From assembly GCA_964416025.1 (NCBI GenBank), contig CAYQCJ010000004.1:1-55190 (forward strand): a stretch of 55,190 nucleotides of DNA, in the 5' to 3' direction. The notes under the pieces were generated by a model. It saw nothing but the letters and a program-made list of their open reading frames with translations. It had not been told where the DNA came from and did not search any database. The DNA is from an uncultured Staphylococcaceae bacterium. Lineage in GTDB: Bacteria > Bacillota_I > Bacilli_A > RFN20 > CAG-826. Positions 1-12,002 of the stretch are shown here, piece by piece. The stretch's first letter is position 1; each line of letters starts with the position of its first letter. Both the position numbers and the translations under genes were made by a program.

Positions 1-225
1 TACATGCTTCAATGATATCAGGAATAGTTGAATGAGCTAAATTCTTGATAACTTTTACTAAAACTTGTCTTTGAATCGTGTTTCTTTCCATTTATTGCAA
101 TTCTTTCCTTATTAATAATTATTCTAAATAAGAAATAAGTAAATGTCAATATTTTTTTGAAAAAAGTGAAATAGTTTATTTTAGTTTAATTTTAATTTAC
201 AATATCCCATGGAGGAAATACCTAT

Positions 226-993
226 ATGAATAGATTAGAAGGAAAAGTTGCTATTATTACTGGAAGTAATTCAGGTGTTGGCGAAGCTACAGCTAAATTA
301 TTTAGTAAGGAAGGAGCAACAGTCGTTATTTGTGCTCGTCGTAAAGAAGCTTTAGAGAAAGTTGAAAAAGAAATTAAGGATGCCGGAGGAAAAGTTTTAG
401 CTGTTTCTACCGATATTTCAAAACTTGATCAAATTGAAACTTTATTTAAAGATACAATTGCTGCTTTTGGAAAAGTTGATATTTTAGTCAATAATGCTGG
501 TGTTTTAGACAGCGGACTTAAAGCTATCAACAAATTCTTAGATGATGATTTTGATAGAGTTGTTACTATCAATGAAAAAGGCACTATGATGTGCACTCGT
601 GAAGCCCTTAAATATATGGAACCAGCCAATAAAGGAACAATTGTTAATGTTGCTAGTGTTGCTGGACAATATGGATGTGGCGGCGCAGTTTATGTTGCTA
701 CTAAAGGCGCTATTATTGGTGTCACAAAACATACTGCTATGAGATTTACTGGAACTGGCATTAGATGTAATGCTGTTTGCCCAGGTACAATCATCACCCC
801 TATGACCACCACTCTTGATCAAAAGAGTCTTGATCAACAAATGTTTGGTGCTATGATGAAACACGCTGATATTATGCATGCTCAACCATGCCAAGCTGAA
901 GATGTTGCTAACATCCTCTTATTCTTATCAAGCGATGAATCACGTGCTTTAAACGGTCAAATTATTGTTTCTGACTTCGGCGCTGATTTATAA
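226..993 (+). CDS. Short-chain dehydrogenase/reductase (SDR family oxidoreductase)
   Basis: TGSNSGVG cofactor motif, NNAG, YVATK catalytic YxxxK; GGAGG RBS upstream. Confidence 0.95.
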   Translation: MNRLEGKVAIITGSNSGVGEATAKLFSKEGATVVICARRKEALEKVEKEIKDAGGKVLAVSTDISKLDQIETLFKDTIAAFGKVDILVNNAGVLDSGLKAINKFLDDDFDRVVTINEKGTMMCTREALKYMEPANKGTIVNVASVAGQYGCGGAVYVATKGAIIGVTKHTAMRFTGTGIRCNAVCPGTIITPMTTTLDQKSLDQQMFGAMMKHADIMHAQPCQAEDVANILLFLSSDESRALNGQIIVSDFGADL

Positions 994-1014
994 ACTTTAT
1001 AACAGTTTAAACAT

Positions 1015-1045
1015 AAAAGACTGATTGCCTCGCAATCAGTCTTTT
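1015..1045. terminator. Bidirectional intrinsic terminator between convergent SDR and PPTase
   Basis: Perfect 14-bp stem aaaagactgattgc-ctc-gcaatcagtctttt. Confidence 0.85.
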
Positions 1046-1633
1046 CTATTGTTTAATTTTGTTTATGAGTTCAACATTTATATCATCAGTATAACAAACT
1101 ATACACAAATCAAAGTCGACAATATAGAGATGGGCTTTCTTCATAATTACATGCGAAATTGGACAAATGGAGAGGCCTTTACCGGTGAATTTTGCAAAAG
1201 CTTCTTTTTTACACCATGCTTCTAGCAAGAATAAATCAGGATCTTTTGAATTATAATAATCAAATTGCTCATCAATATTTAGATAGGCTTTTACCGCCTT
1301 TTCGTTTTCTTTAATATGGTTTAAAGAATCGACATCAACTCCTAATTGACTCGATAAACTAATACCAATAAGAACAAAATCTCCAGTATTTGAAATATTA
1401 AAATTAAATCCATCAAAAAATGGTTTGCCATCATCATTAACATGAATTTCTTTAGATAATAAATCAATTTCAAAATATTTGTGCAAATAAATAGTCAAAA
1501 TTTTGTAACCAAATAAAGATAATTTTTTGTGTTTTTCATCTTTATATTTAGAACAATATTTTAAAATTGATTCATTTAATTGAATATCTAGTTCTTCATA
1601 TTTTGTTAATATCAATAATGTTTTTGGTTCCAT
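1046..1633 (-). CDS. 4'-phosphopantetheinyl transferase (Sfp/AcpT-like)
   Basis: GKPFF, FNISNT, LGVDVD and WCKKEAFAKFTGKG motifs. Confidence 0.9.
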   Translation of the reverse strand: MEPKTLLILTKYEELDIQLNESILKYCSKYKDEKHKKLSLFGYKILTIYLHKYFEIDLLSKEIHVNDDGKPFFDGFNFNISNTGDFVLIGISLSSQLGVDVDSLNHIKENEKAVKAYLNIDEQFDYYNSKDPDLFLLEAWCKKEAFAKFTGKGLSICPISHVIMKKAHLYIVDFDLCIVCYTDDINVELINKIKQ

Positions 1634-1674
1634 ACTTTTATAATATCATAATTTTAAATCATTCATATAAACAT

Positions 1675-1712
1675 AATTTATCGAAAAACCCCTGCAAAGA
1701 CCCCTTCTTTTT
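1675..1712 (-). repeat. Dispersed G-tract repeat, copy A
   Basis: Minus strand AAAAAGAAGGGGTCTTTGCAGGGGTTTTTCGATAAATT; matches copies at 10093-10131 and 21350-21390. Confidence 0.7.
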
Positions 1713-1718
1713 ATAAAA

Positions 1719-2666
1719 TTAGTTCTTTTTATATAATTTTATTTCGTTAATTTTAAAAGTAGTCTTTTGATAAACGTTGGAGTTGCCATTCGTTGCATCT
1801 TTATAATAATAGGTCGCTCCATCTATAGGAGTTCCGCTTGTTGGCATCTTAGAAGAATAATAAGAATTTACAAGATTACTAAACTCAATTGTAAAGAAGA
1901 AAATTTGCATATTTTGTGTATGTGTTGAATCGGTGGCATCGAAAGTACTCGAAATCAATTCATTATTAATTCCACTATATTTGATTTCACCCTTTGTTGA
2001 TCCCGAAACCGTTTCACCATTATCAATGTTTTCTTTTGAATCAAAATTAAATAAATCAGTTGAGTCACTAGTTTTCTTAGTAACGACACTATTTGCAGCA
2101 GTTGTAACCTCAGCAGCAGTCTTGTTTTCAGTAGCAAAAACACTGGTATAAATGTTAATTGCATCGGCCAATCCCACTCGCTTTTCAGTTACAGTATCGT
2201 CTCCAGTGCCACTTAAAACATAATTTAAAGTCGTTGTATCAAATAAATTTGAGAAGGAATTTAGGTTCATTGCAACCAAAGAATTACCATAACTAGAAGT
2301 AACTTCTAAAGCAAAAGTATATCTTGCTCCAGGAACTAAACCAGAAAAAGTAAAGTTGTAATTTGAACCTAAAGTCACAAAATCAGTTGTGTAATCTGTA
2401 ACTGTTTTACTTGGAGTAGTTAATTCTCCAGGATCGATATATCCACTCATTCCTTTACTTGTGTCGTTATTTTCATAATTACCAATAAAACTCTTAATGT
2501 TAAAAAACACTTCGTTAGAAGCTAAAACAATATTTCCTACATCCGCTTTGACAACACGATTAGAAATAAACCAAGCTAAAGTTGTGGAAAGCGTTCCAGT
2601 AAGCAGGATTATTTCTGAAAGAGAAATAATGATAATTTTTTTATTAAAATCGATTTTTTTCCTCAT
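1719..2666 (-). CDS. Secreted protein with SipW-cognate-class-like signal peptide (TasA/camelysin-like fibre subunit candidate)
   Basis: Start moved to MRKKIDFNKK (2666), just after the upstream stop; basic N-terminus, hydrophobic stretch, then TLSTTLAWF; YNFTFSGLVPG resembles the TasA-like 'nl.PG' segment. Confidence 0.65.
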   Translation of the reverse strand: MRKKIDFNKKIIIISLSEIILLTGTLSTTLAWFISNRVVKADVGNIVLASNEVFFNIKSFIGNYENNDTSKGMSGYIDPGELTTPSKTVTDYTTDFVTLGSNYNFTFSGLVPGARYTFALEVTSSYGNSLVAMNLNSFSNLFDTTTLNYVLSGTGDDTVTEKRVGLADAINIYTSVFATENKTAAEVTTAANSVVTKKTSDSTDLFNFDSKENIDNGETVSGSTKGEIKYSGINNELISSTFDATDSTHTQNMQIFFFTIEFSNLVNSYYSSKMPTSGTPIDGATYYYKDATNGNSNVYQKTTFKINEIKLYKKN

Positions 2667-2670
2667 ATCT

Positions 2671-5600
2671 CTACCAAATAACAGGTGCTCCATCAACATA
2701 GTGCCAATACCTAACAGTAGATTGTGTCTTATCTGCTGTGGTTTCGGCATAATAAATAGTTTCTTTAGTGTTTTTATTCCAAACATTGTTTACCCACTTA
2801 TTGGTGCTTGTATCAGCATAATGAAGAGCAACAAAATCGGCGTATTTATCTGATACATAAATATAAGCTTTCTTAGAATCTGTTCCGTTTCCAAAAGCTT
2901 CACTACTAATACTTATATTTGTTGAAATTGGCAAGACAACGCCAGTATAAGCACAATTTCTAAAAGCAGCTTCACCTATACTTAAGATATTTCCAGTTCT
3001 CGTTGTTTTATCATCAACGAAATTTAATATGGTACTTGCATTAGATGTTGTACCTGCTGTATCGACAGATTTAAAATTTGCTAAGTTTCCGCAACCATCA
3101 AATGTTGAGTTACTAACATACTTTAATGATGTAGGTAATGTAATAGTAGTTAAAGAACCAGAATCTTGAAATGCCCACCCATACATACTAATTAATCCAT
3201 TATTAAAATTAATGGTTGTTAAAGGCGAATTTTTGAAAAGATCCATACCAGTAATATTACATCCAGAATATGTTGAGAATGTTGTTTTAGCTCTAGGAAT
3301 ACAATATAAAACAGTTTGATTGCATGTTGTTCTTGAACTATTTACATATAAACATCCATCATAAGAAGTTAAATTTGTACCAACCAATTCAGCAGAATTA
3401 TAGGCAGTTCCTAAAGAAAAACCTCTACAATCTTCAATTCTACAAAAAACATTTAATCTTGCTGCCGTGCTCGTATCTGGAGCCTTATTAACATAATAAT
3501 TAGCATCAGGGAAATAAATATCAACAGCAGTTGGAAGTACGACATATGTTAACTTAGTTTTCATCAAACCATTATCACAAATGTAAGCTAAACTAGTTGG
3601 AAATACATAATTTGCATTATATGTTGTTCCTGTATAACCGACAATTTGTAAAGTATTATTGCATGCATAAAAACCAGATAATCCAATAAACGAGATTGTA
3701 TTTGGTAATTCAAATTTCTTAACGCTTGTGTCACCAGCAAATGCACCTTGTCCAATTTCAGTGACAGTATAAGAATTCCCATTATATACATGAGTTTCAG
3801 CAACTTTTATTGTTGCTGCATTTGCTGTTAAACCTAAAAAGGCATTAGTTTTAACATATCCCGTAATTGTAATGTGATTACCATTAGGTTCTTTCGTATT
3901 TTCTTTCTTTGTAGCATCATCAAAAATATAATAATAACCTTGGGTAGTTTCGCGCATTATATTGGTTTCAGCACCAATATTATAGTAAATACCATTTTTT
4001 AATGAACTAAATGGAGCACCATTATAGGACGATCCTTGATTTTGAGCATTACCATCAATTTTTCCATATGAACCAGTTGCACCTTCAAAATAAATAGTTA
4101 ACATCGAATTACTAGCAATAGAACCATCGATTTTATTTATCGATAAAGGAATATAAACATAAGGTAATTTTTGACAAGTGCCAAAAATATTGCCACCTAG
4201 TTCATTAACCCAGTTACCCCAATTAATCTTGCTTAAATTAGTACAAGAATCAAAAGCATTATCATTAATTTTGGTAGCTGAAGTTGAAGCGAGCGTTGCG
4301 TTAGCAGCATCTTTAAAAGTTAAAGTTGTGAAAAAATTACAATTTTGAAATGCATTGTTACCAATTCTTTTGTAATAACTAGTAGTACCAGTATTATCCA
4401 TTAAACTCGAAGGAATAATAAGTTCCACATTTTTGGTTGGAGTTATGCCTTTACCACAACTATTAAAAGCATTAGTCCCAATCGAAGCTAAATTACTTGT
4501 ATTAGTAGATGCCCCTTCAAACTCTAAAGAAGCAACTTTATATGTGTTTTGAAAAGCGCTATCTTCGATTGTAACAACCGATTTAGGAATTTTAAGACCA
4601 GTAATAGCAGTACAATTTAAAAACGCTTCTTTCTTAATTGTAATAAGAGAAGAAGGAAAAGTAACTGTTGTTAAAGCAGTACAATTATTAAAGGCGTCTT
4701 CGCCAATTATAGTTAATGAGGTAGCAGCACTCATATCAACAGAAGTAATTTTATTATTGTAATAAAAACTTTCTTTTCTAACTTCAACAACTGGTTTTCC
4801 ACCGATTGTAGCTGGAATTGTAATAGCTGTTCCATAACCAACATATCTAGTAATATAAGATTCTTCACCTTGCGAAATATATATAAAATCATTTTCAGTT
4901 CCGATAGCATCAATGCTCAAAATTACTTGAAGATAAGCAGTTGAATCGGTCGATGTACCGGTTTTATTTCCAATTCTATTCCAATCAGTATTGTAAGTTG
5001 TAGGAATAGCATCGGCTTGTAAATAAATTTCCGCTCCACTAATTCCCCTAAAAGCATATTTTTCAATGGTTACTGTAGAAATATTAGGTATATGAATATA
5101 GACAACACTCTCACAATGATAGAAAGCGTTCTCTCTAATTGTGGTAACTGTTGTTGGAATAATAATATCTTGTAGATATGTGCAATATGAAAATGCACTA
5201 GAACAAATCTCAATTAAACCATTTGGTAATTTGAAGTTTCCTACTGTGCCATCGTTAAGTCCGCCCAAATAATCGCAACCAGCAAAAGCATGATCCCAAA
5301 TCTTGGTAACAATCGAAGTATCAGCAAAACTAAAATAAGTTAAGTCTTTACAATCCTCGAATGTTCCTGGAAATATCTCAGTTGGTCCGCTAGGAAAAGT
5401 AAACGAAGTAAAGTTTGAATGCGTAAATGCTTGTTTACCCATCACAGTTAAATTAGTAGGCCATTGTGAAATGCTGACAAAATCAATATTACTAAAAGCA
5501 TTATTAGCAATCGAAGTAATTGTGTAAACTGTTCCTGCATCATCAACATAAGTATCTGGAAGTTTAATATAAGTTGTTTCAGTAGCATCTCCATAAGCAA

Positions 5601-5853
5601 CGGAACAAACATTATTTCCACTACCATCAGTCGCTGTTACGTATTTAAGGCCTTTAGTGTAGTCGCCTGTCGCATTATTTTCATATCGCACAGTGCCTTT
5701 TTGTTCAAATAATCTATTAGGGTTTCCATCTTCACTAACTTTCATTAATTCTTCAACTGAAAGCTCTGTATTAGTGCAAGCAGATAACATACTTAAACTT
5801 ACAACAGATAAACCAAACATCAACTTAACTTTTAAATTAAACATATTTTTCAT
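2671..5853 (-). CDS. BspA-type leucine-rich-repeat (LRR_5) lipoprotein, 1060 aa
   Basis: Lipobox LSMLSAC (Cys26); many 'I..xAF.xC..L..i.iP..v.tI' repeats. Confidence 0.9.
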   Translation of the reverse strand: MKNMFNLKVKLMFGLSVVSLSMLSACTNTELSVEELMKVSEDGNPNRLFEQKGTVRYENNATGDYTKGLKYVTATDGSGNNVCSVAYGDATETTYIKLPDTYVDDAGTVYTITSIANNAFSNIDFVSISQWPTNLTVMGKQAFTHSNFTSFTFPSGPTEIFPGTFEDCKDLTYFSFADTSIVTKIWDHAFAGCDYLGGLNDGTVGNFKLPNGLIEICSSAFSYCTYLQDIIIPTTVTTIRENAFYHCESVVYIHIPNISTVTIEKYAFRGISGAEIYLQADAIPTTYNTDWNRIGNKTGTSTDSTAYLQVILSIDAIGTENDFIYISQGEESYITRYVGYGTAITIPATIGGKPVVEVRKESFYYNNKITSVDMSAATSLTIIGEDAFNNCTALTTVTFPSSLITIKKEAFLNCTAITGLKIPKSVVTIEDSAFQNTYKVASLEFEGASTNTSNLASIGTNAFNSCGKGITPTKNVELIIPSSLMDNTGTTSYYKRIGNNAFQNCNFFTTLTFKDAANATLASTSATKINDNAFDSCTNLSKINWGNWVNELGGNIFGTCQKLPYVYIPLSINKIDGSIASNSMLTIYFEGATGSYGKIDGNAQNQGSSYNGAPFSSLKNGIYYNIGAETNIMRETTQGYYYIFDDATKKENTKEPNGNHITITGYVKTNAFLGLTANAATIKVAETHVYNGNSYTVTEIGQGAFAGDTSVKKFELPNTISFIGLSGFYACNNTLQIVGYTGTTYNANYVFPTSLAYICDNGLMKTKLTYVVLPTAVDIYFPDANYYVNKAPDTSTAARLNVFCRIEDCRGFSLGTAYNSAELVGTNLTSYDGCLYVNSSRTTCNQTVLYCIPRAKTTFSTYSGCNITGMDLFKNSPLTTINFNNGLISMYGWAFQDSGSLTTITLPTSLKYVSNSTFDGCGNLANFKSVDTAGTTSNASTILNFVDDKTTRTGNILSIGEAAFRNCAYTGVVLPISTNISISSEAFGNGTDSKKAYIYVSDKYADFVALHYADTSTNKWVNNVWNKNTKETIYYAETTADKTQSTVRYWHYVDGAPVIW

Positions 5854-5865
5854 ACTTGCTCCTTT

Positions 5866-8727
5866 CTAAACATTTGGATAGAAATAATATTTCTTTCTTG
5901 AAACTAATGTATCACCAAAATAATAACTATTTGACGTATATTTTGAATTTAAAACAACAGCATTAATCAGTGAATCATTGAGTGTTACATGTAAAACTGC
6001 ATTGGCATCAGTGTAAACCTGATACAAAGTGCTCGCTGATGTAAAATAAACTTCGGTATAAATTCCAGCTTTAGTATTTTCGGTAGAAGCAACTAAAGTT
6101 TCGCGTGGATCATAAAGCAAAAAGTCTAAATATTTAACGCTATCAAAATCAGTATAAACAACCTCATTTTCTCCAGTATTTCCTTCTAATTGGCCTTGAG
6201 CAGCCACATAATATATCTTCATTGAATTAGATGGGCAAGCAATAAAATATTCTCCTTGAGGAACAAAGAAAGTATGAGCAAATAATCTTTCTGTAGCATT
6301 GGTTTCAATAGTAGATTGTGTAGTTGTAGTTCCATTATCTGGATTATAAGTAAAATAAGAAAATCCATCAACATCACTCCCTATTCCAGGAATAAAAGTT
6401 GAATACATTGGTCTTAAAGCCGCTTGGTTAATTTTTCCAGCCCCAGCTAAAGATTGCTCTTTTTTATAAAGAGAAACATATCTTCCAGTATTTCCGTAAT
6501 TTGAAGCCATTACGGTAATATTAGCTCCGTTTTCATTTGAAACTTTACAATAAATAGATGAAGAAGCATAAGTATTATTGTCATATGTAATAGTTGAAAA
6601 ATCGTTTCCAGGAGCAGAAATCGACAAATAAGAATCAAGAGACGTTATATTTGTTTCAGTTCCGTCAGTTGCTACGTTTCTTACCATGACTCCAAAATCT
6701 GGATCTAATGGCTCGATTTGTTCGCCTTTTTTATCTCTCAATTTATATTTAAAATAATTTTTCAATAAATCACAATTAGTATTGTAAAAATAATTGCCTT
6801 TTATTGACGATGAAAAAGGCGATTTAATTATGTAATTAATACGCTTTTCATAACGAGAATTCCAAGTATATTCATCAGAATATGTTGGCATATGCGTTTG
6901 TTGTTCAATACGATATTTATTAGCACTGATCGAATTGGAATCCATTGTCCAAACGCTAGATTCAGATACGGCTGGAGTATTTGTGGTTGTATCAGTAGGA
7001 ACATATTCAGCAGTCGTATAATAAAATTCTGTAAATTCTTTGTTCGCTACTTTTGAAACATTATAAGATCCAAATCCATCAAGATAATAAGTAGCTAAAG
7101 GGTGACCATCATAGCCTTTATTATCGTAATTTGCCGTTGCTAACTTAAAAATACCTAATCCACGGTCTTTTGTCGAGGTATCTGAAATAACTTGTTGTCC
7201 AATATAATCAAGAGTATTAGAAGCATTTGTTATGTATTTAAAATTAGTCATATCTCGACGTAAGAATTCATCAAATAATCCTGAATCTTGAGGTTTGTAT
7301 GTATAATACGCATATTGATTTCCTTTAGAATCGGCTAAATTACTCGCTCCTTTTGTGGCTTCAGCAGTTCCTCTAATTGTGTTATACATTTCAGTAAAGT
7401 TAATAACACCAGTATCACCTGATTTTTCATACATTTCTGAAGGCGAGAATCCATTTAAAATATTGACACCAACTTCACCAATTAAACCGATTGATGATTC
7501 AGCTTTTAAGTGTGTATAAGTTGAGGCAGTACCATAATTTAAATGGATTCCGCCTTGATCTTTTGCATTGTAAACATAACAATTTTGAACGCTACCGTCG
7601 GTATGTCCAACAATGTAACCAACATTGTTTCCGTGAGCATATTCGGTATATGTTCCTTCAGTTCCACTAACATAATCTCTATAGGCTTTCATTGTAATTA
7701 CAGGTTTATCGTTTGTATCAAAATTGTTAATAAATTTAATCAAATAACTCGATAAAACCTTTGAATAAGAAACATAATTTAAGGTTCTAGAAGCCGTTAA
7801 TGAAATACGAAAATCAATTTCACTATGATTTGTTGTCATGAATGTATTGGTTGCTGAATCATTAATAAATTGCGCAGTATCGATTGAAACAACATTATTT
7901 TCATAAGGTAAAACAATACTTGAAGAACTCTTTACTGATTTCTCATAATCAGGAGATAATGTAGGAAAAACCGCCGTAAAAGTTCCACCAGTAAACGCAC
8001 TTTGAGAATAGATGGCGGTGCCAGTAGATGGAATTTCAGTAGGTGTTCCGCCATTTTCAGTAAAACTTAAAATGGCACCAGTTGCTGCATCATCTGCATA
8101 TAAATAGCCCATTTCATTGGTGTTATAACCATCGTTATAAACATTTAAAGAAGAGAAAATACAGTTCTTGACTAAAGCTTGGGAAGCGACATAACCAAAA
8201 ACTCCAACATCTTCAGGAGATGAATGAATTGTTAAACCAACAACCGGAATATTCTTTCCATCATATTGACCATAAAATGGGACAGATTCACTACCGATTG
8301 AAAGTAAATTACTAGAATAAGTGTCGCCACTCATATCTAAATATGTTGAATATGGATCGGCATCACTATCGACCGATGAGTCAGTTTTATAAACTAAATA
8401 AACACCTGGTTGATTAGTTGGATCTAATTCATAACCGAGTTGAAAATAAGTTTTAGTTCCGAAAACACCGAGGTTTTGTAATCTAGTTAAATTATAAAAA
8501 TGAATTGGACGAGTGATAACATATGGTTTTTCTGCCGTTCCGTCTCCGACATAGCTTGCTGAAGTATGGAAGTAATTTCTTAAACCAACTTGTCCTTCCA
8601 TGTTGTAACTAAATTCAGTTTTTGTAGCGTAATAATAGGCAAAACTCAAAGAAACAGCTAATGCTGATACTCCACTAAGGATTACCAATCCTTTCAAAAA
8701 TGTTTGCTTTATAAATCTACTATTCAC
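5866..8727 (-). CDS. Large secreted protein with SipW-class-like signal peptide and GLUG-type beta-helical adhesin region, 953 aa
   Basis: N-terminal LAVSLSFAYY; GDGTAEKPYVIT, FYGQYDGKN, VGVFGYV and VGYIVGH motifs typical of GLUG-containing surface proteins. Confidence 0.65.
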   Translation of the reverse strand: MNSRFIKQTFLKGLVILSGVSALAVSLSFAYYYATKTEFSYNMEGQVGLRNYFHTSASYVGDGTAEKPYVITRPIHFYNLTRLQNLGVFGTKTYFQLGYELDPTNQPGVYLVYKTDSSVDSDADPYSTYLDMSGDTYSSNLLSIGSESVPFYGQYDGKNIPVVGLTIHSSPEDVGVFGYVASQALVKNCIFSSLNVYNDGYNTNEMGYLYADDAATGAILSFTENGGTPTEIPSTGTAIYSQSAFTGGTFTAVFPTLSPDYEKSVKSSSSIVLPYENNVVSIDTAQFINDSATNTFMTTNHSEIDFRISLTASRTLNYVSYSKVLSSYLIKFINNFDTNDKPVITMKAYRDYVSGTEGTYTEYAHGNNVGYIVGHTDGSVQNCYVYNAKDQGGIHLNYGTASTYTHLKAESSIGLIGEVGVNILNGFSPSEMYEKSGDTGVINFTEMYNTIRGTAEATKGASNLADSKGNQYAYYTYKPQDSGLFDEFLRRDMTNFKYITNASNTLDYIGQQVISDTSTKDRGLGIFKLATANYDNKGYDGHPLATYYLDGFGSYNVSKVANKEFTEFYYTTAEYVPTDTTTNTPAVSESSVWTMDSNSISANKYRIEQQTHMPTYSDEYTWNSRYEKRINYIIKSPFSSSIKGNYFYNTNCDLLKNYFKYKLRDKKGEQIEPLDPDFGVMVRNVATDGTETNITSLDSYLSISAPGNDFSTITYDNNTYASSSIYCKVSNENGANITVMASNYGNTGRYVSLYKKEQSLAGAGKINQAALRPMYSTFIPGIGSDVDGFSYFTYNPDNGTTTTQSTIETNATERLFAHTFFVPQGEYFIACPSNSMKIYYVAAQGQLEGNTGENEVVYTDFDSVKYLDFLLYDPRETLVASTENTKAGIYTEVYFTSASTLYQVYTDANAVLHVTLNDSLINAVVLNSKYTSNSYYFGDTLVSRKKYYFYPNV

Positions 8728-8732
8728 GATAA

Positions 8733-9551
8733 TTACCCGTTATTTTGCCTTACATCGATGGAAAAACCGTAATCCATGTAGAATTTATATTTATCAAGAA
8801 TTTGATCATCAGAATATTTGCTTAGTGAGTCTTGGTTATAATCAAGATTAATGTATAAAGTTGTAACTGTCGTTAAAGATGTGTCAGTAACAACCGGTCC
8901 ACTAACAGGAGACGTCGACTCAATTAAGGCAACTTTATCAATGGTAGTTTCACCAGTTCTAAAAGATTCTTTAGTTGTTGTTGTTTTTTCGGCGTATTGT
9001 TTTGCTTTATAAAAAATATTGTCGTTAGCAGTTGGATTAACGTTTGTTATTGTTTCTGCATCGAGGGTTTCTTGATTTAAACAAACAAAATCTAAATAAT
9101 TACCGACTCCATCAGTATATCCAGTTGGTTTGTTTGCTATTTTTCTATTAGCATAAACATTAAAATCATAACCACAATTAGCTGTTACAGTGATATCAAG
9201 TTTTAAAACAAGATTTGTTTTTAATTCTGATAAAGTAACGTCTTTATAGATAGTTAAATAAACCGGATCATATAAATTCATAATGCAATCGTCGGTTGCA
9301 TGGGTATTTACAGAACCTTTTGTGTAATCAAAAAATCCAGTATTAGTGCCTATTTCTTCAAAATCATATCTATATGCAGTAGTTTGAATTGAATCAATAC
9401 TTAATGAACCAGCTTCAATCTCAATCAAATCAGTGACTTTTTTGTTAGCAATTAACCACGCAAAAGTAGTTGAACAAATCATTAAACCAATAACAGATAT
9501 ATTCAACAAACAAATCAAGCAAACTTTGGTCTTATTAAATTTCTTTTTCAA
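8733..9551 (-). CDS. Secreted protein with SipW-cognate-class-like signal peptide, 272 aa
   Basis: MKKKFNK + hydrophobic helix + CSTTFAWL, followed by IEAGSLSI. Confidence 0.7.
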   Translation of the reverse strand: MKKKFNKTKVCLICLLNISVIGLMICSTTFAWLIANKKVTDLIEIEAGSLSIDSIQTTAYRYDFEEIGTNTGFFDYTKGSVNTHATDDCIMNLYDPVYLTIYKDVTLSELKTNLVLKLDITVTANCGYDFNVYANRKIANKPTGYTDGVGNYLDFVCLNQETLDAETITNVNPTANDNIFYKAKQYAEKTTTTKESFRTGETTIDKVALIESTSPVSGPVVTDTSLTTVTTLYINLDYNQDSLSKYSDDQILDKYKFYMDYGFSIDVRQNNG

Positions 9552-9808
9552 CTTTTTTTCCGCTCAAAAATCTTGTTTTCAAGTTTTTAGATTATACATT
9601 AATAAACCTAATATTTACATATATATGTTATATATATAAAATTACTATACCTAATAAATTGACAAAAAATTAATAAAAAATTATGATGAACTCGGTAAAA
9701 TTTACCAAATATTAATATGTAAAAATATAATTAAAATATTTATTTTTATTAAATAATACTAGTCGTTTTCTACGAAAGTGTTTATAATTTTTCTAGGAGG
9801 ATTTCAAT

Positions 9809-10033
9809 ATGAAATGGTTTAATAGTTTACCAAGATTAGTCCAAATACTTCTTCTTCTTATTCCAGGTGTCAACTGGGTAGTCGAAATTGTAGTTAGATG
9901 GAGTGCCGCATTAACTCATAAAGATGTCGGTCATATCTTAGTTGCTTTATTAGTCACCATCTTCGGCGTCGTTGTCGGTTGGCTCGATGTCATTTGGTGC
10001 TTATTATTCAAACATTTAGTTTACGCTAAATAA
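9809..10033 (+). CDS. Small integral membrane protein, 74 aa
   Basis: AGGAGG RBS; almost entirely hydrophobic helices; own terminator downstream. Confidence 0.8.
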   Translation: MKWFNSLPRLVQILLLLIPGVNWVVEIVVRWSAALTHKDVGHILVALLVTIFGVVVGWLDVIWCLLFKHLVYAK

Positions 10034-10058
10034 TTGAATCAACAACAAATTGAAACAT

Positions 10059-10085
10059 AAAAGAAACTCGTATAGAGTTTCTTTT
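10059..10085. terminator. Intrinsic terminator
   Basis: aaaagaaactc-gtata-gagtttctttt between convergent genes. Confidence 0.8.
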
Positions 10086-10092
10086 ATTTTGG

Positions 10093-10131
10093 AAAATAAG
10101 GGGTATTTGCAGGGGTTATTGATAAATTTCC
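10093..10131 (+). repeat. Dispersed G-tract repeat, copy B, overlapping the stop codon of the E2-like gene
   Basis: AAAATAAGGGGTATTTGCAGGGGTTATTGATAAATTTCC. Confidence 0.7.
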
Positions 10132-11009
10132 TTAAGAGAAGCCGTTCCTTTTTCCATTAAATAATCATAATTTTCTAAAATATTTTTAAATACTTTTAAT
10201 GATTTAGCACAATAAAATCCATCATTAATTCTTTCATCAACTGTAAATCCAATTGGTAACATCAAAGACATTTTGTATGTTCCATCTTCATTATATTGAG
10301 GTTCATATTTTGCTTTTCCAACAAGGGCAAAAACAGAATTGGTTCCTCTATTAGCTAAATGATGATAACCACTACCCATACCAAGAGAACCAATATTAGA
10401 TAAAAATACACTAGAATAATCTACATCACCTTTACGGATACTTTTTGGTTCGTGTCCCTTCTTATCAAGGAAATTCATAAAATTAACATAAGCACCAACT
10501 ACAAATCTTGGAAGTATTGAGGCAAGTTTTAAAGAGTCTTCTCCGGCGGTTTGTTTGCCACTTCTTTCGTTAAAAACCTCGCTTAAAATTATGTTATAAA
10601 CATCATTTAAATTCACATCATTATCAAATTTTAATAAAGCCAATCCTTCTTGAGAATGATCAATAAATTGTCTTCGAATAACGAATGAGAGCGAAATATC
10701 ATCTCTTTGAAATAATTTTTTGTTTTGCACAAAACGATTCATATAAGGTCTTAATACAAAAGTTTTAATTAAAGCTGTGCAAATACAATGAAAATAAGTA
10801 AGGTGTTTTTCTTTTGGTAAATCTTTATTAAATTCTTCAAGTTTACCCTTCAGATTCGTTACATCAATTTTGATATTTATAAACGCTTCATTTGAAACTC
10901 GATCTTTATACATGTAAGGCATAATTATGTGTAAAGGATCAGCATCACGAACTAAAGTGGCATCAAAACGATCGCCAAATCTTTTCTTTTTTGAATTATT
11001 ATTTTTCAT
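10116..11009 (-). CDS. Stand-alone 2-oxoacid dehydrogenase E2-like acyltransferase catalytic domain
   Basis: TYFH..ALIK...P.MN, SVFLSNIGSLG, FTVDERINDG (DHRxxDG-equivalent); no lipoyl domain. Confidence 0.8.
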   Translation of the reverse strand: MKNNNSKKKRFGDRFDATLVRDADPLHIIMPYMYKDRVSNEAFINIKIDVTNLKGKLEEFNKDLPKEKHLTYFHCICTALIKTFVLRPYMNRFVQNKKLFQRDDISLSFVIRRQFIDHSQEGLALLKFDNDVNLNDVYNIILSEVFNERSGKQTAGEDSLKLASILPRFVVGAYVNFMNFLDKKGHEPKSIRKGDVDYSSVFLSNIGSLGMGSGYHHLANRGTNSVFALVGKAKYEPQYNEDGTYKMSLMLPIGFTVDERINDGFYCAKSLKVFKNILENYDYLMEKGTASLKEIYQ

Positions 11010-11138
11010 AAAAACCTTTCTTTTAATTATTTACAACTAAAATTATAACATAAAATCTATAAAATTTTATGGGGTTGAAAATCACTTATTTGGTTAAAGT
11101 AACATATTTTTATTCTAATTTTTACATTTTTATCAGAC

Positions 11139-11585
11139 TTAATAATGCTTATATAATCGCGATATTTCGCCATCATCACAATTTACTTCACAGCAAAACT
11201 CCCACCCATATCTTTCATAAAAAGACGTGTGATCAGTAACTAAATATAGAGGAGATATACCTTTGCTTTTCATATCTTCAACCGCTAAATTCAATAATTT
11301 TCCTGCAATACCTCTATTTCTATATTGTTTTAATACAAATACTGCACAAACATTAGGTGATAAATCAGTTCTCTCGTGAAAGTCATTGTCGATCACACCT
11401 AAACCTCCAACAATTTCTTCTCCATTTAAACAGAGATACCATCCATTTTTAGTTTCTCCATTTATGTATTTATTCATACATTCATAATAAGCATCTTGAG
11501 GTATACCCCATTTGTCAGAAAACCAAATTGATGCATCTTTAATTAAATCTTTTCTATCTATAAGTTTAATAAATGATAAGTCCAT
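11139..11585 (-). CDS. GNAT family N-acetyltransferase
   Basis: VFVLKQYRNRGIAGKLL acetyl-CoA motif; FYERYGW. Confidence 0.9.
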   Translation of the reverse strand: MDLSFIKLIDRKDLIKDASIWFSDKWGIPQDAYYECMNKYINGETKNGWYLCLNGEEIVGGLGVIDNDFHERTDLSPNVCAVFVLKQYRNRGIAGKLLNLAVEDMKSKGISPLYLVTDHTSFYERYGWEFCCEVNCDDGEISRLYKHY

Positions 11586-11852
11586 TATTAGTAATTCCTT
11601 TTCTTTAATATAATAAGAATGACTTATTTTCTCAAGAGATGATTATTAGTTTTTATAATAAACATCAATAATTATGTAACAATCAACTTATTGATGATAA
11701 ATAAAGATTATTTATTATCGACTTTCATATAGGATGCAATGAAATAAAAGTCAGGCACTTTAGGGTAGAGTTAACAATTTCCAATACAATTGATACAATT
11801 TTTAAGGTCTTATAAATAAAAAAAGTCCGATAAAATCGAACAAATAATTTAT

Positions 11853-11926
11853 TGGTGCCCCCTCGCAGAGTCGAACTACGCATTGATCCTTACCATGGAT
11901 CCGTTATACCGATTAACTAAGGGGGC
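11853..11926 (-). tRNA. tRNA-Thr(GGT)
   Basis: Cloverleaf: acceptor GCCCCCT/AGGGGGC + ACCA, D-stem GTTA/TAAC, anticodon stem GATCC/GGATC with loop ATGGTAA, T-loop TTCGACT; downstream hairpin GTTCGAT/ATCGGAC + U-tract. Confidence 0.95.
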
Positions 11927-12002
11927 AACGCCTTATTAGTATATAGAATTCGTCTATTAAAAACAACAAAATTTTTATACTTAAAGAATACAAAACATAA
12001 GA

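Follow-up and report, generated by a model that had tools for sequence, protein, structure and literature searches.

Our analysis of a 55,190-nucleotide stretch of DNA from an uncultured Staphylococcaceae bacterium (contig CAYQCJ010000004.1 of assembly GCA_964416025.1; hereafter the window) centres on an operon of four genes, p1 to p4, that lies on the minus strand between positions 1719 and 9551. Three of these genes, p1, p2 and p4, encode proteins with leaders of the kind processed by SipW-type signal peptidases, and the remaining gene, p3, encodes a lipoprotein with leucine-rich repeats (LRR) of the BspA type. Comparison with the rest of the genome indicates that the operon is very likely a satellite front module of a larger system encoded on C1, another contig of this genome, where diverged paralogues of p1, p2 and p4 stand in one locus with a McrB-like GTPase and a SipW-type peptidase. 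Beyond this we favour, with modest confidence, the reading that the operon is an exchangeable, SipW-processed adhesin or tip module of a SipW-dependent surface-fibre system that is linked to a McrB-type GTPase, a class recently named CoCoPALM. Cleavage of the leaders of p1, p2 and p4 is likely to occur, their entry into a true polymer is close to an even question with a slight lean towards doubt, and the roles given below to the individual proteins are proposals.

The four genes run head to tail and are tightly packed, as an initial annotation of this DNA had described, with gaps of 5, 12 and 4 nt in order from p1 to p4. The first gene, p1 (8733-9551), encodes a small leader-bearing protein of 272 amino acids (aa) that we term an a-type subunit. 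We favour a TTG start that gives p1 an N-terminal extension because a 49% identical homologue (P0002) also bears a hydrophobic N-terminus. Its leader, read from the sequence as residues 1-31 (9459-9551), consists of KKKFNKTK, a hydrophobic helix and the predicted cleavage site between A31 and W32. The large leader-bearing protein p2 (5866-8727; 953 aa, GTG start) is b-type and has its predicted cleavage site between A30 and Y31. Protein p3 (2671-5853; 1060 aa) carries seven LRR_5 stretches (PF13306, E 2.4e-79) and a lipobox, L23-S-A-C26, that was read from the sequence at 5776-5787. The BspA-type LRR lipoprotein of the initial annotation is confirmed, and its gene is third in the operon. The last gene, p4 (1719-2666), encodes a small c-type protein of 315 aa with a predicted cleavage site between A31 and W32; its longest frame would give 355 aa, and we favour the shorter product because p4 homologues begin at the same place, with MRKK or MKQK. 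Each of the four proteins has a single hydrophobic segment, which is N-terminal, and a C-terminal hydrophobic segment or anchor is absent from all of them.

With the exception of the LRR_5 match of p3, none of these proteins has a genuine match in Pfam or NCBIfam. The 953-aa protein had been labelled a GLUG adhesin, a label that the models do not confirm: p2 does not match Pfam GLUG (PF07581) at E<=1 and yields only a spurious match to YdgV. The p2 family, whose members share a conserved N-terminal block (GLRxYF..GDGTxxxPYVIxRPxHFYNLTRLQNLG), runs to more than 120 clusters of homologues, and a Pfam domain is absent from all of them. The p2 profile has no significant match among sequences in the PDB, the one weak hint being a putative IgA1 protease (3n6z, E 0.035). 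The p4 family comprises 134 representative clusters among 1.84 billion proteins, and its profile has no match among PDB sequences.

The leaders of p1, p2 and p4 are built alike. A basic stretch leads into a single hydrophobic helix, which ends in [TS]-x-A and then W/Y-F/L/Y, with the motifs reading S-T-T-F-A31↓W32-L in p1, L-S-F-A30↓Y31-Y in p2 and S-T-T-L-A31↓W32-F in p4 (arrows mark the predicted cut). The three leaders had been singled out before, and an alignment of 86 members of the p4 family upholds them: T or S occupies position -3 in 82 members and A or S position -1 in all 86, W stands at +1 in 86 of 86, and 85 members have F or Y at +2. The p1 and p2 families follow the same pattern, as do the families of proteins d, g and h of the C1 locus. 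The conservation of small residues at -3 and -1 suggests that a real cleavage takes place here. When the entire 1.44-Mb assembly was scanned for leaders of this build (a basic stretch, then a helix and the motif), genuine cases were confined to the window operon (C4) and the one C1 locus; the leader motif is more than chance and is specific to these two places. Profile comparison with hhalign aligns the p1 family with the p4 family (probability 96.7%, E 3.5e-10) and the C1 d/g/h families with the p4 family (probability 96.3%), and the leader plus about 25 mature residues constitutes the only segment that is common to otherwise different families. Hydrophobic residues within the post-cleavage part of this segment prefer the even positions +2, +8, +10 and +12. 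The shared N-terminal segment therefore has the look of a common assembly strand, which we infer rather than demonstrate.

The initial annotation had found neither sipW nor a sortase in the window, which is correct, and had pointed to the rest of the genome for sipW, where it is indeed present. The single type I signal peptidase of the genome, at C1:142511-143035, is of the SipW type (archaeal/ER-type, S26B): its TIGR02228 score of 53.4 bits exceeds the cut-off of 51.85, and the SipW model NF046067 matches it at E 3.9e-17. It retains the catalytic DSMEP (Ser) and THRV (His) motifs and so appears from its sequence to be active. A signal peptidase of the LepB type was not found in the genome, the assembly being 91% complete, and such an enzyme is also absent from most of eight relatives that were checked. 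The peptidase gene is the last of an 11-gene locus (L003, C1:128000-147000) that encodes about eight leader-bearing proteins followed by a McrB-like GTPase, its partner and the peptidase. In order, the leading genes are a (268 aa), b (824 aa), c (284 aa), d (337 aa), e (a small membrane protein), f, g and h. The first three are diverged paralogues of p1, p2 and p4, respectively. For p2 and C1 b this rests on a match of E 4e-14 with 29% identity over about 230 aa, for p4 and C1 c on a match of E 9e-9 with 26% identity over 324 aa, and for p1 and C1 a on the leader together with synteny.

The GTPase of the C1 locus is 505 aa long and combines an AAA_5 domain with a membrane and coiled-coil segment at its N-terminus. 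In the PDB it is related only to E. coli McrB (6hz4, E 9e-5), and in PADLOC it matches PDC-M26A (E 2e-36). The 517-aa partner has no Pfam match. Genes with EAL domains flank the locus, and two riboswitches of the type I class for cyclic dimeric GMP (c-di-GMP) are located within it, upstream of a and f (L003:2136-2209 and 8274-8350, 57 bits each). The genome also holds a second, diverged pair of McrB-like and partner genes at C8:33919-35390, away from any leader-bearing genes. This second McrB-like protein, in a 921-aa frame, is 38-40% identical to the C1 GTPase, and the long form also occurs in five relatives (G007, G022, G036, G053 and G056).

Bell et al. (eLife 2024, PMC11090510) have reported that McrB homologues fused to an FtsB-like membrane and coiled-coil domain associate with proteins of the signal peptidase family, and have named this class CoCoPALM. 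The class was named only in 2024, with a fuller description announced as forthcoming (PMC11090510), and the same authors consider the peptidase-family proteins to be likely "pilus assembly factors" (PMC11090510). The C1 locus fits this published description: its McrB-like GTPase begins with membrane and coiled-coil sequence, and a partner gene and a gene of the signal peptidase family adjoin it. The McrC-type partner of CoCoPALM is represented by a DUF2357 protein in the related locus L051, whereas the C1 partner has no Pfam match. The window operon, unlike a CoCoPALM locus, contains structural genes only; it is because the defining genes are absent from the window that we term the operon a satellite and not a CoCoPALM locus in its own right. 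Cargo proteins, LRR partners and c-di-GMP riboswitches are not covered in the CoCoPALM paper (PMC11090510). This link to a McrB-like GTPase core of the CoCoPALM type, and to control by c-di-GMP, goes beyond what the initial annotation had proposed.

The arrangement of the operon is not peculiar to this genome. An order of small protein, approximately 950-aa protein and LRR_5 protein recurs in distant metagenomic contigs at 28-60% protein identity, so that the expected conservation of the gene order in relatives is found and includes the LRR lipoprotein. The order p1, p2, LRR_5 is present in six loci (L049, L050, L051, L023, L046 and L005), and an LRR_5 gene directly follows a p2-type gene in seven (L005, L023, L024, L046, L049, L050 and L051). 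This recurrence marks the LRR lipoprotein as a standard component of the module, as opposed to an insertion. In L051 the module is contiguous with a core, in the order pilin-like, McrB-like, DUF2357 (McrC-type), SipW-type, EAL, PNP, p1, p2, LRR lipoprotein, EAL and p4. GGDEF, EAL and HD-GYP genes come next after the module in L049 and L050, with d- and f-type genes after these. L010 has p1, p2 and then the start of a p3-like gene, and the contigs L023, L024, L026 and L046 are further carriers of the module. A core of the C1 type is kept gene for gene in L043 and in genome G038. The module can thus be situated inside a core locus, beside a core or elsewhere in the genome.

Linkage and co-occurrence were counted among 61 relatives. 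Of the 22 relatives with matches to the leader-bearing family, 13 have them no more than 10 kb from a SipW-type gene, and a reading of open reading frames adds a 14th case (G038), in which the core locus holds an intact peptidase of 279 aa. A McrB-like gene of the C1 kind is present in all nine relatives with p2-type or full-length p4-type genes, eight of which fall in the close-orthologue group (11 of the 61 relatives). The SipW-type open reading frame of another relative, G056, is intact at 181 aa, its four apparent stops not being real. Adjoining this SipW-type gene, at L054:2021-2509, is a gene for a 162-aa protein with a TasA-like leader (GLGAGVFAKYNS); the two make up a second, smaller pair of SipW and substrate that is distinct from the McrB-linked locus.

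These data bear on the simplest alternative, in which p1, p2 and p4 are ordinary secreted proteins, the motif is the general site preference of the only type I peptidase of the lineage and the four genes are chance neighbours. The peptidase census described above is what such a reading would predict, as is the lack of a TIGR04088 match detailed below. However, a general site preference is at odds with the confinement of the motif to the C1 and C4 loci, and chance neighbourhood is at odds with a gene order that is kept across many contigs at 28-60% protein identity, with the paralogy to the C1 front genes and with the co-occurrence with a McrB-type core. We consider ordinary secretion very improbable. 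The same census does count against the reading we favour in one respect, since linkage within a genome is a weaker sign of a dedicated enzyme where SipW is the only type I peptidase.

Among the closest known systems is tapA-sipW-tasA of B. subtilis, and for comparison we used the TasA sequence itself, verified against PDB 8aur. The mature TasA chain in this structure begins at A28, and SipW must therefore cut G-G-G-T-W-A↓A-F. Alignment by hhalign places TasA GGGTWA↓AF in register with T-y-A↓W-F of the leader family, which supports the earlier assignment of these leaders to the SipW-substrate kind. The likeness to tapA-sipW-tasA extends to a basic, hydrophobic leader that ends in T-x-A (followed in our proteins by an aromatic residue and F) and to a SipW-type peptidase, which here is encoded with the C1 paralogues of the window genes. 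The donor strand of TasA consists of its first 11 mature residues and is common to TapA as well (PMC9674648); here also the first mature residues are common to several different proteins. In contrast to tapA-sipW-tasA, the system described here draws on a far larger set of subunit types, includes a McrB-like GTPase as well as an LRR lipoprotein and has no wall available for attachment, and it differs further in having no match to Peptidase_M73 or TIGR04088 and a predicted p4 fold that is not TasA-like.

These last differences are the first of several findings that weigh against the reading we favour. TIGR04088, the model for SipW-cognate signal peptides on which the initial annotation had drawn, matches none of p1 to p4 at E<=1, and its best match in the genome, to C1 protein d, reaches 16.7 bits and falls under the 19-bit cut-off. 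Profile comparison of TasA with the leader families aligns nothing beyond the leader (probability <3%). Peptidase_M73 (PF12389) matches none of p1 to p4; it matches one of the 86 p4 family members at chance level (E 0.0099) and gives only two partial matches across 250 genomes of the class. A predicted structure of p4 made with AlphaFold2 from 86 sequences is confident, with a predicted local distance difference test score (pLDDT) of 90 and a predicted template modelling (TM) score of 0.83, and consists of an N-terminal helix at residues 7-35 followed by a beta-sandwich. In this model the helix continues through the proposed cleavage site and would also fit an uncleaved signal anchor. A Foldseek search with the model returned no PDB match below E 1e-3 and no TasA entry among the top 50, and there was no significant neighbour in BFVD. 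The modelled p4 fold thus resembles neither TasA/camelysin nor any solved pilin. The top-ranked structural match of the model, mu-adaptin, was discarded because its TM score was about 0.1, and an earlier p4 model from only six sequences (pLDDT 63) had given an uninformative Foldseek result.

Because only the leader aligns and the p4 model has no TasA match, p1, p2 and p4 are SipW- and TasA-like at the leader but lie outside the TasA/camelysin family. The TasA-like fibre with a membrane anchor that had been put forward for this operon consequently stands in part. Its SipW-type leaders, the presence of SipW in the genome and the conserved gene order hold, while the TIGR04088 match, the GLUG domain and a fold related to TasA/camelysin or to pilins do not.

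The p4 model also supports an alternative in which the operon encodes a non-polymeric membrane adhesin complex. The helices of p1, p2 and p4 would then be uncleaved anchors, or would be cleaved only for release of soluble proteins, and the products would form a surface complex with the LRR lipoprotein, of a kind typical of wall-less bacteria. Besides the continuous helix and the lack of a pilin or TasA neighbour for the p4 fold, this reading draws on the lack of cell-wall genes in the assembly, which makes membrane tethering the normal route of display, and on the LRR partner, which always has a lipobox or an N-terminal hydrophobic segment. An anchor-only role nevertheless does not explain why a post-cleavage segment of approximately 25 residues should be common to at least three different families. 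Moreover, the strict [TS]-x-[AS]↓W-[FY] motif obeys the -3/-1 rule and is in register with the TasA cleavage site, and the leader family is tightly linked to SipW-type genes. We regard a purely membrane-bound adhesin complex as unlikely, though deserving of serious weight.

A further alternative is a new type of helix-bundled pilus, in which the hydrophobic helix is retained as in type IV pilins, the subunits are extracted and stacked by the McrB-like GTPase and the SipW-type proteins serve as assembly factors. Such a pilus would be compatible with the single N-terminal helix and beta domain of the p4 model, with an N-terminus conserved across subunit families, with the membrane nucleoside triphosphatase that the core locus always holds and with the view of Bell et al. 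that the peptidase-family proteins are likely "pilus assembly factors" (PMC11090510). However, a prepilin-peptidase site or class III leader (a short basic leader with G↓F/M-T-L-x-E) occurs in no window or C1 leader, and the conserved site is found where the hydrophobic helix ends, not where it starts. Small residues are kept at -3 and -1, which suggests a site that is really cut, and neither the catalytic Ser motif nor the His motif of the peptidase has been lost. We therefore think a helix-bundled pilus improbable.

For the exchangeable SipW-processed module that we favour, the remaining difficulties come from regulation and from decay. The window operon does not have the c-di-GMP riboswitch that relatives carry: in L005 (genome G014) a c-di-GMP-I riboswitch (L005:9873-9955, 58 bits) occupies a 378-bp gap between a gene for a 1091-aa LRR protein and the p4 orthologue, whereas the corresponding gap in the window is 4 bp and has no riboswitch. 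In the same locus p1 is split into pieces of 102 and 96 aa (L005:2870-3404), and p2 carries a TAA stop in one assembly (G014:C3:32112-35006). The nearest named relative, Bacillales bacterium UBA4855, lacks p1 and p2, and its LRR gene is broken into three pieces (L038:6929-10948). Since orthologous cassettes are decaying in the nearest relatives, the module is dispensable.

Upstream of the operon is an AT-rich region of approximately 260 bp (9552-9810, minus strand) that has no riboswitch according to Rfam; a search of window positions 1-12000 at E<=0.1 returned tRNA only. Divergent from this region, on the plus strand at approximately 9812-10030, is a gene for a small hydrophobic protein (MKWFNSLPRLVQILLLLIPGVNW...) that carries a strong GGAGG ribosome-binding site. 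At the other end of the operon, directly 3' of the p4 stop, a G-tract word, AAGGGGTCTTTGCAGGGGTTTTTCG, is present on the minus strand at 1680-1712.

The cell envelope of the organism bears on how a surface structure could be held. No sortase (PF04203), penicillin-binding protein transpeptidase or FtsW/RodA was found in the 91% complete assembly, and with no PF04203 in the genome and no C-terminal hydrophobic segment in p1 to p4 the operon does not have the features of a sortase-assembled pilus. Judging by its gene content, this gut-type bacterium is probably wall-less. From the absence of these genes it follows that surface structures need membrane tethering, and a lipoprotein partner is sensible because a surface structure must then be held by the membrane.

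On this basis we propose the following mechanism. The operon would be a detached second copy of a front module that comprises an a-type protein, a b-type protein of approximately 950 aa, a BspA-type LRR protein and a c-type protein, with the core elsewhere on C1 supplying subunits d to h, the membrane-anchored McrB-like GTPase, its partner and the SipW-type peptidase. All four proteins would be exported by Sec. Protein p3 would be lipidated at Cys26 and stay on the membrane, while the C1 peptidase would act in trans on p1, p2 and p4 and cut them after [TS]-x-A, directly ahead of W/Y. This cut would expose the conserved, strand-like N-terminus that is common to the C1 subunits, and the shared segment would then join p1, p2 and p4 to the C1-encoded assembly. 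Protein p2 may be an alternative adhesive head with p1 and p4 as adaptors, and the LRR lipoprotein may be a co-adhesin or a membrane-proximal partner. The window copy as a whole would serve as an alternative to the a-b-c set on C1. In its fullest form, which we hold to be possible but rather doubtful, wall-less gut and digester Bacilli would build a filament from subunits of novel fold by means of a SipW-type cut and a shared N-terminal strand, a McrB-derived GTPase would assemble or gate it under c-di-GMP control and the p1-p2-LRR-p4 set would be an exchangeable tip cassette, giving one shaft with different heads.

LRR surface adhesins of the BspA/LrrA type (PF13306) include Tannerella BspA and HupY/LrrG. 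The p3 protein resembles these in its seven LRR_5 stretches and its lipoprotein signal, but unlike them its gene has a fixed place beside those for two or three SipW-leader proteins in a conserved module. To our knowledge such a fixed module has not been described for BspA-type proteins, and we know of no description of a fixed LRR partnership combined with the behaviour of a detachable module. If our reading is correct, three families without a Pfam or NCBIfam match would gain a context as structural cargo of a peptidase and McrB-GTPase system, and a system that is widespread in uncultured gut and digester Bacilli and experimentally unstudied would gain its cargo. Outside Bacillus, the T-x-A↓W-F site would give SipW-type peptidases a concrete and testable set of substrates. 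That a BspA-type LRR lipoprotein is a constant partner suggests a way for wall-less bacteria to mount and vary adhesins, and the recurring c-di-GMP enzymes and riboswitches suggest a switch between sessile and planktonic states in organisms that are not known for one. Should the filament itself prove real, it would add a new class to the prokaryotic appendages, and the first one in a Mollicutes-like cell type.

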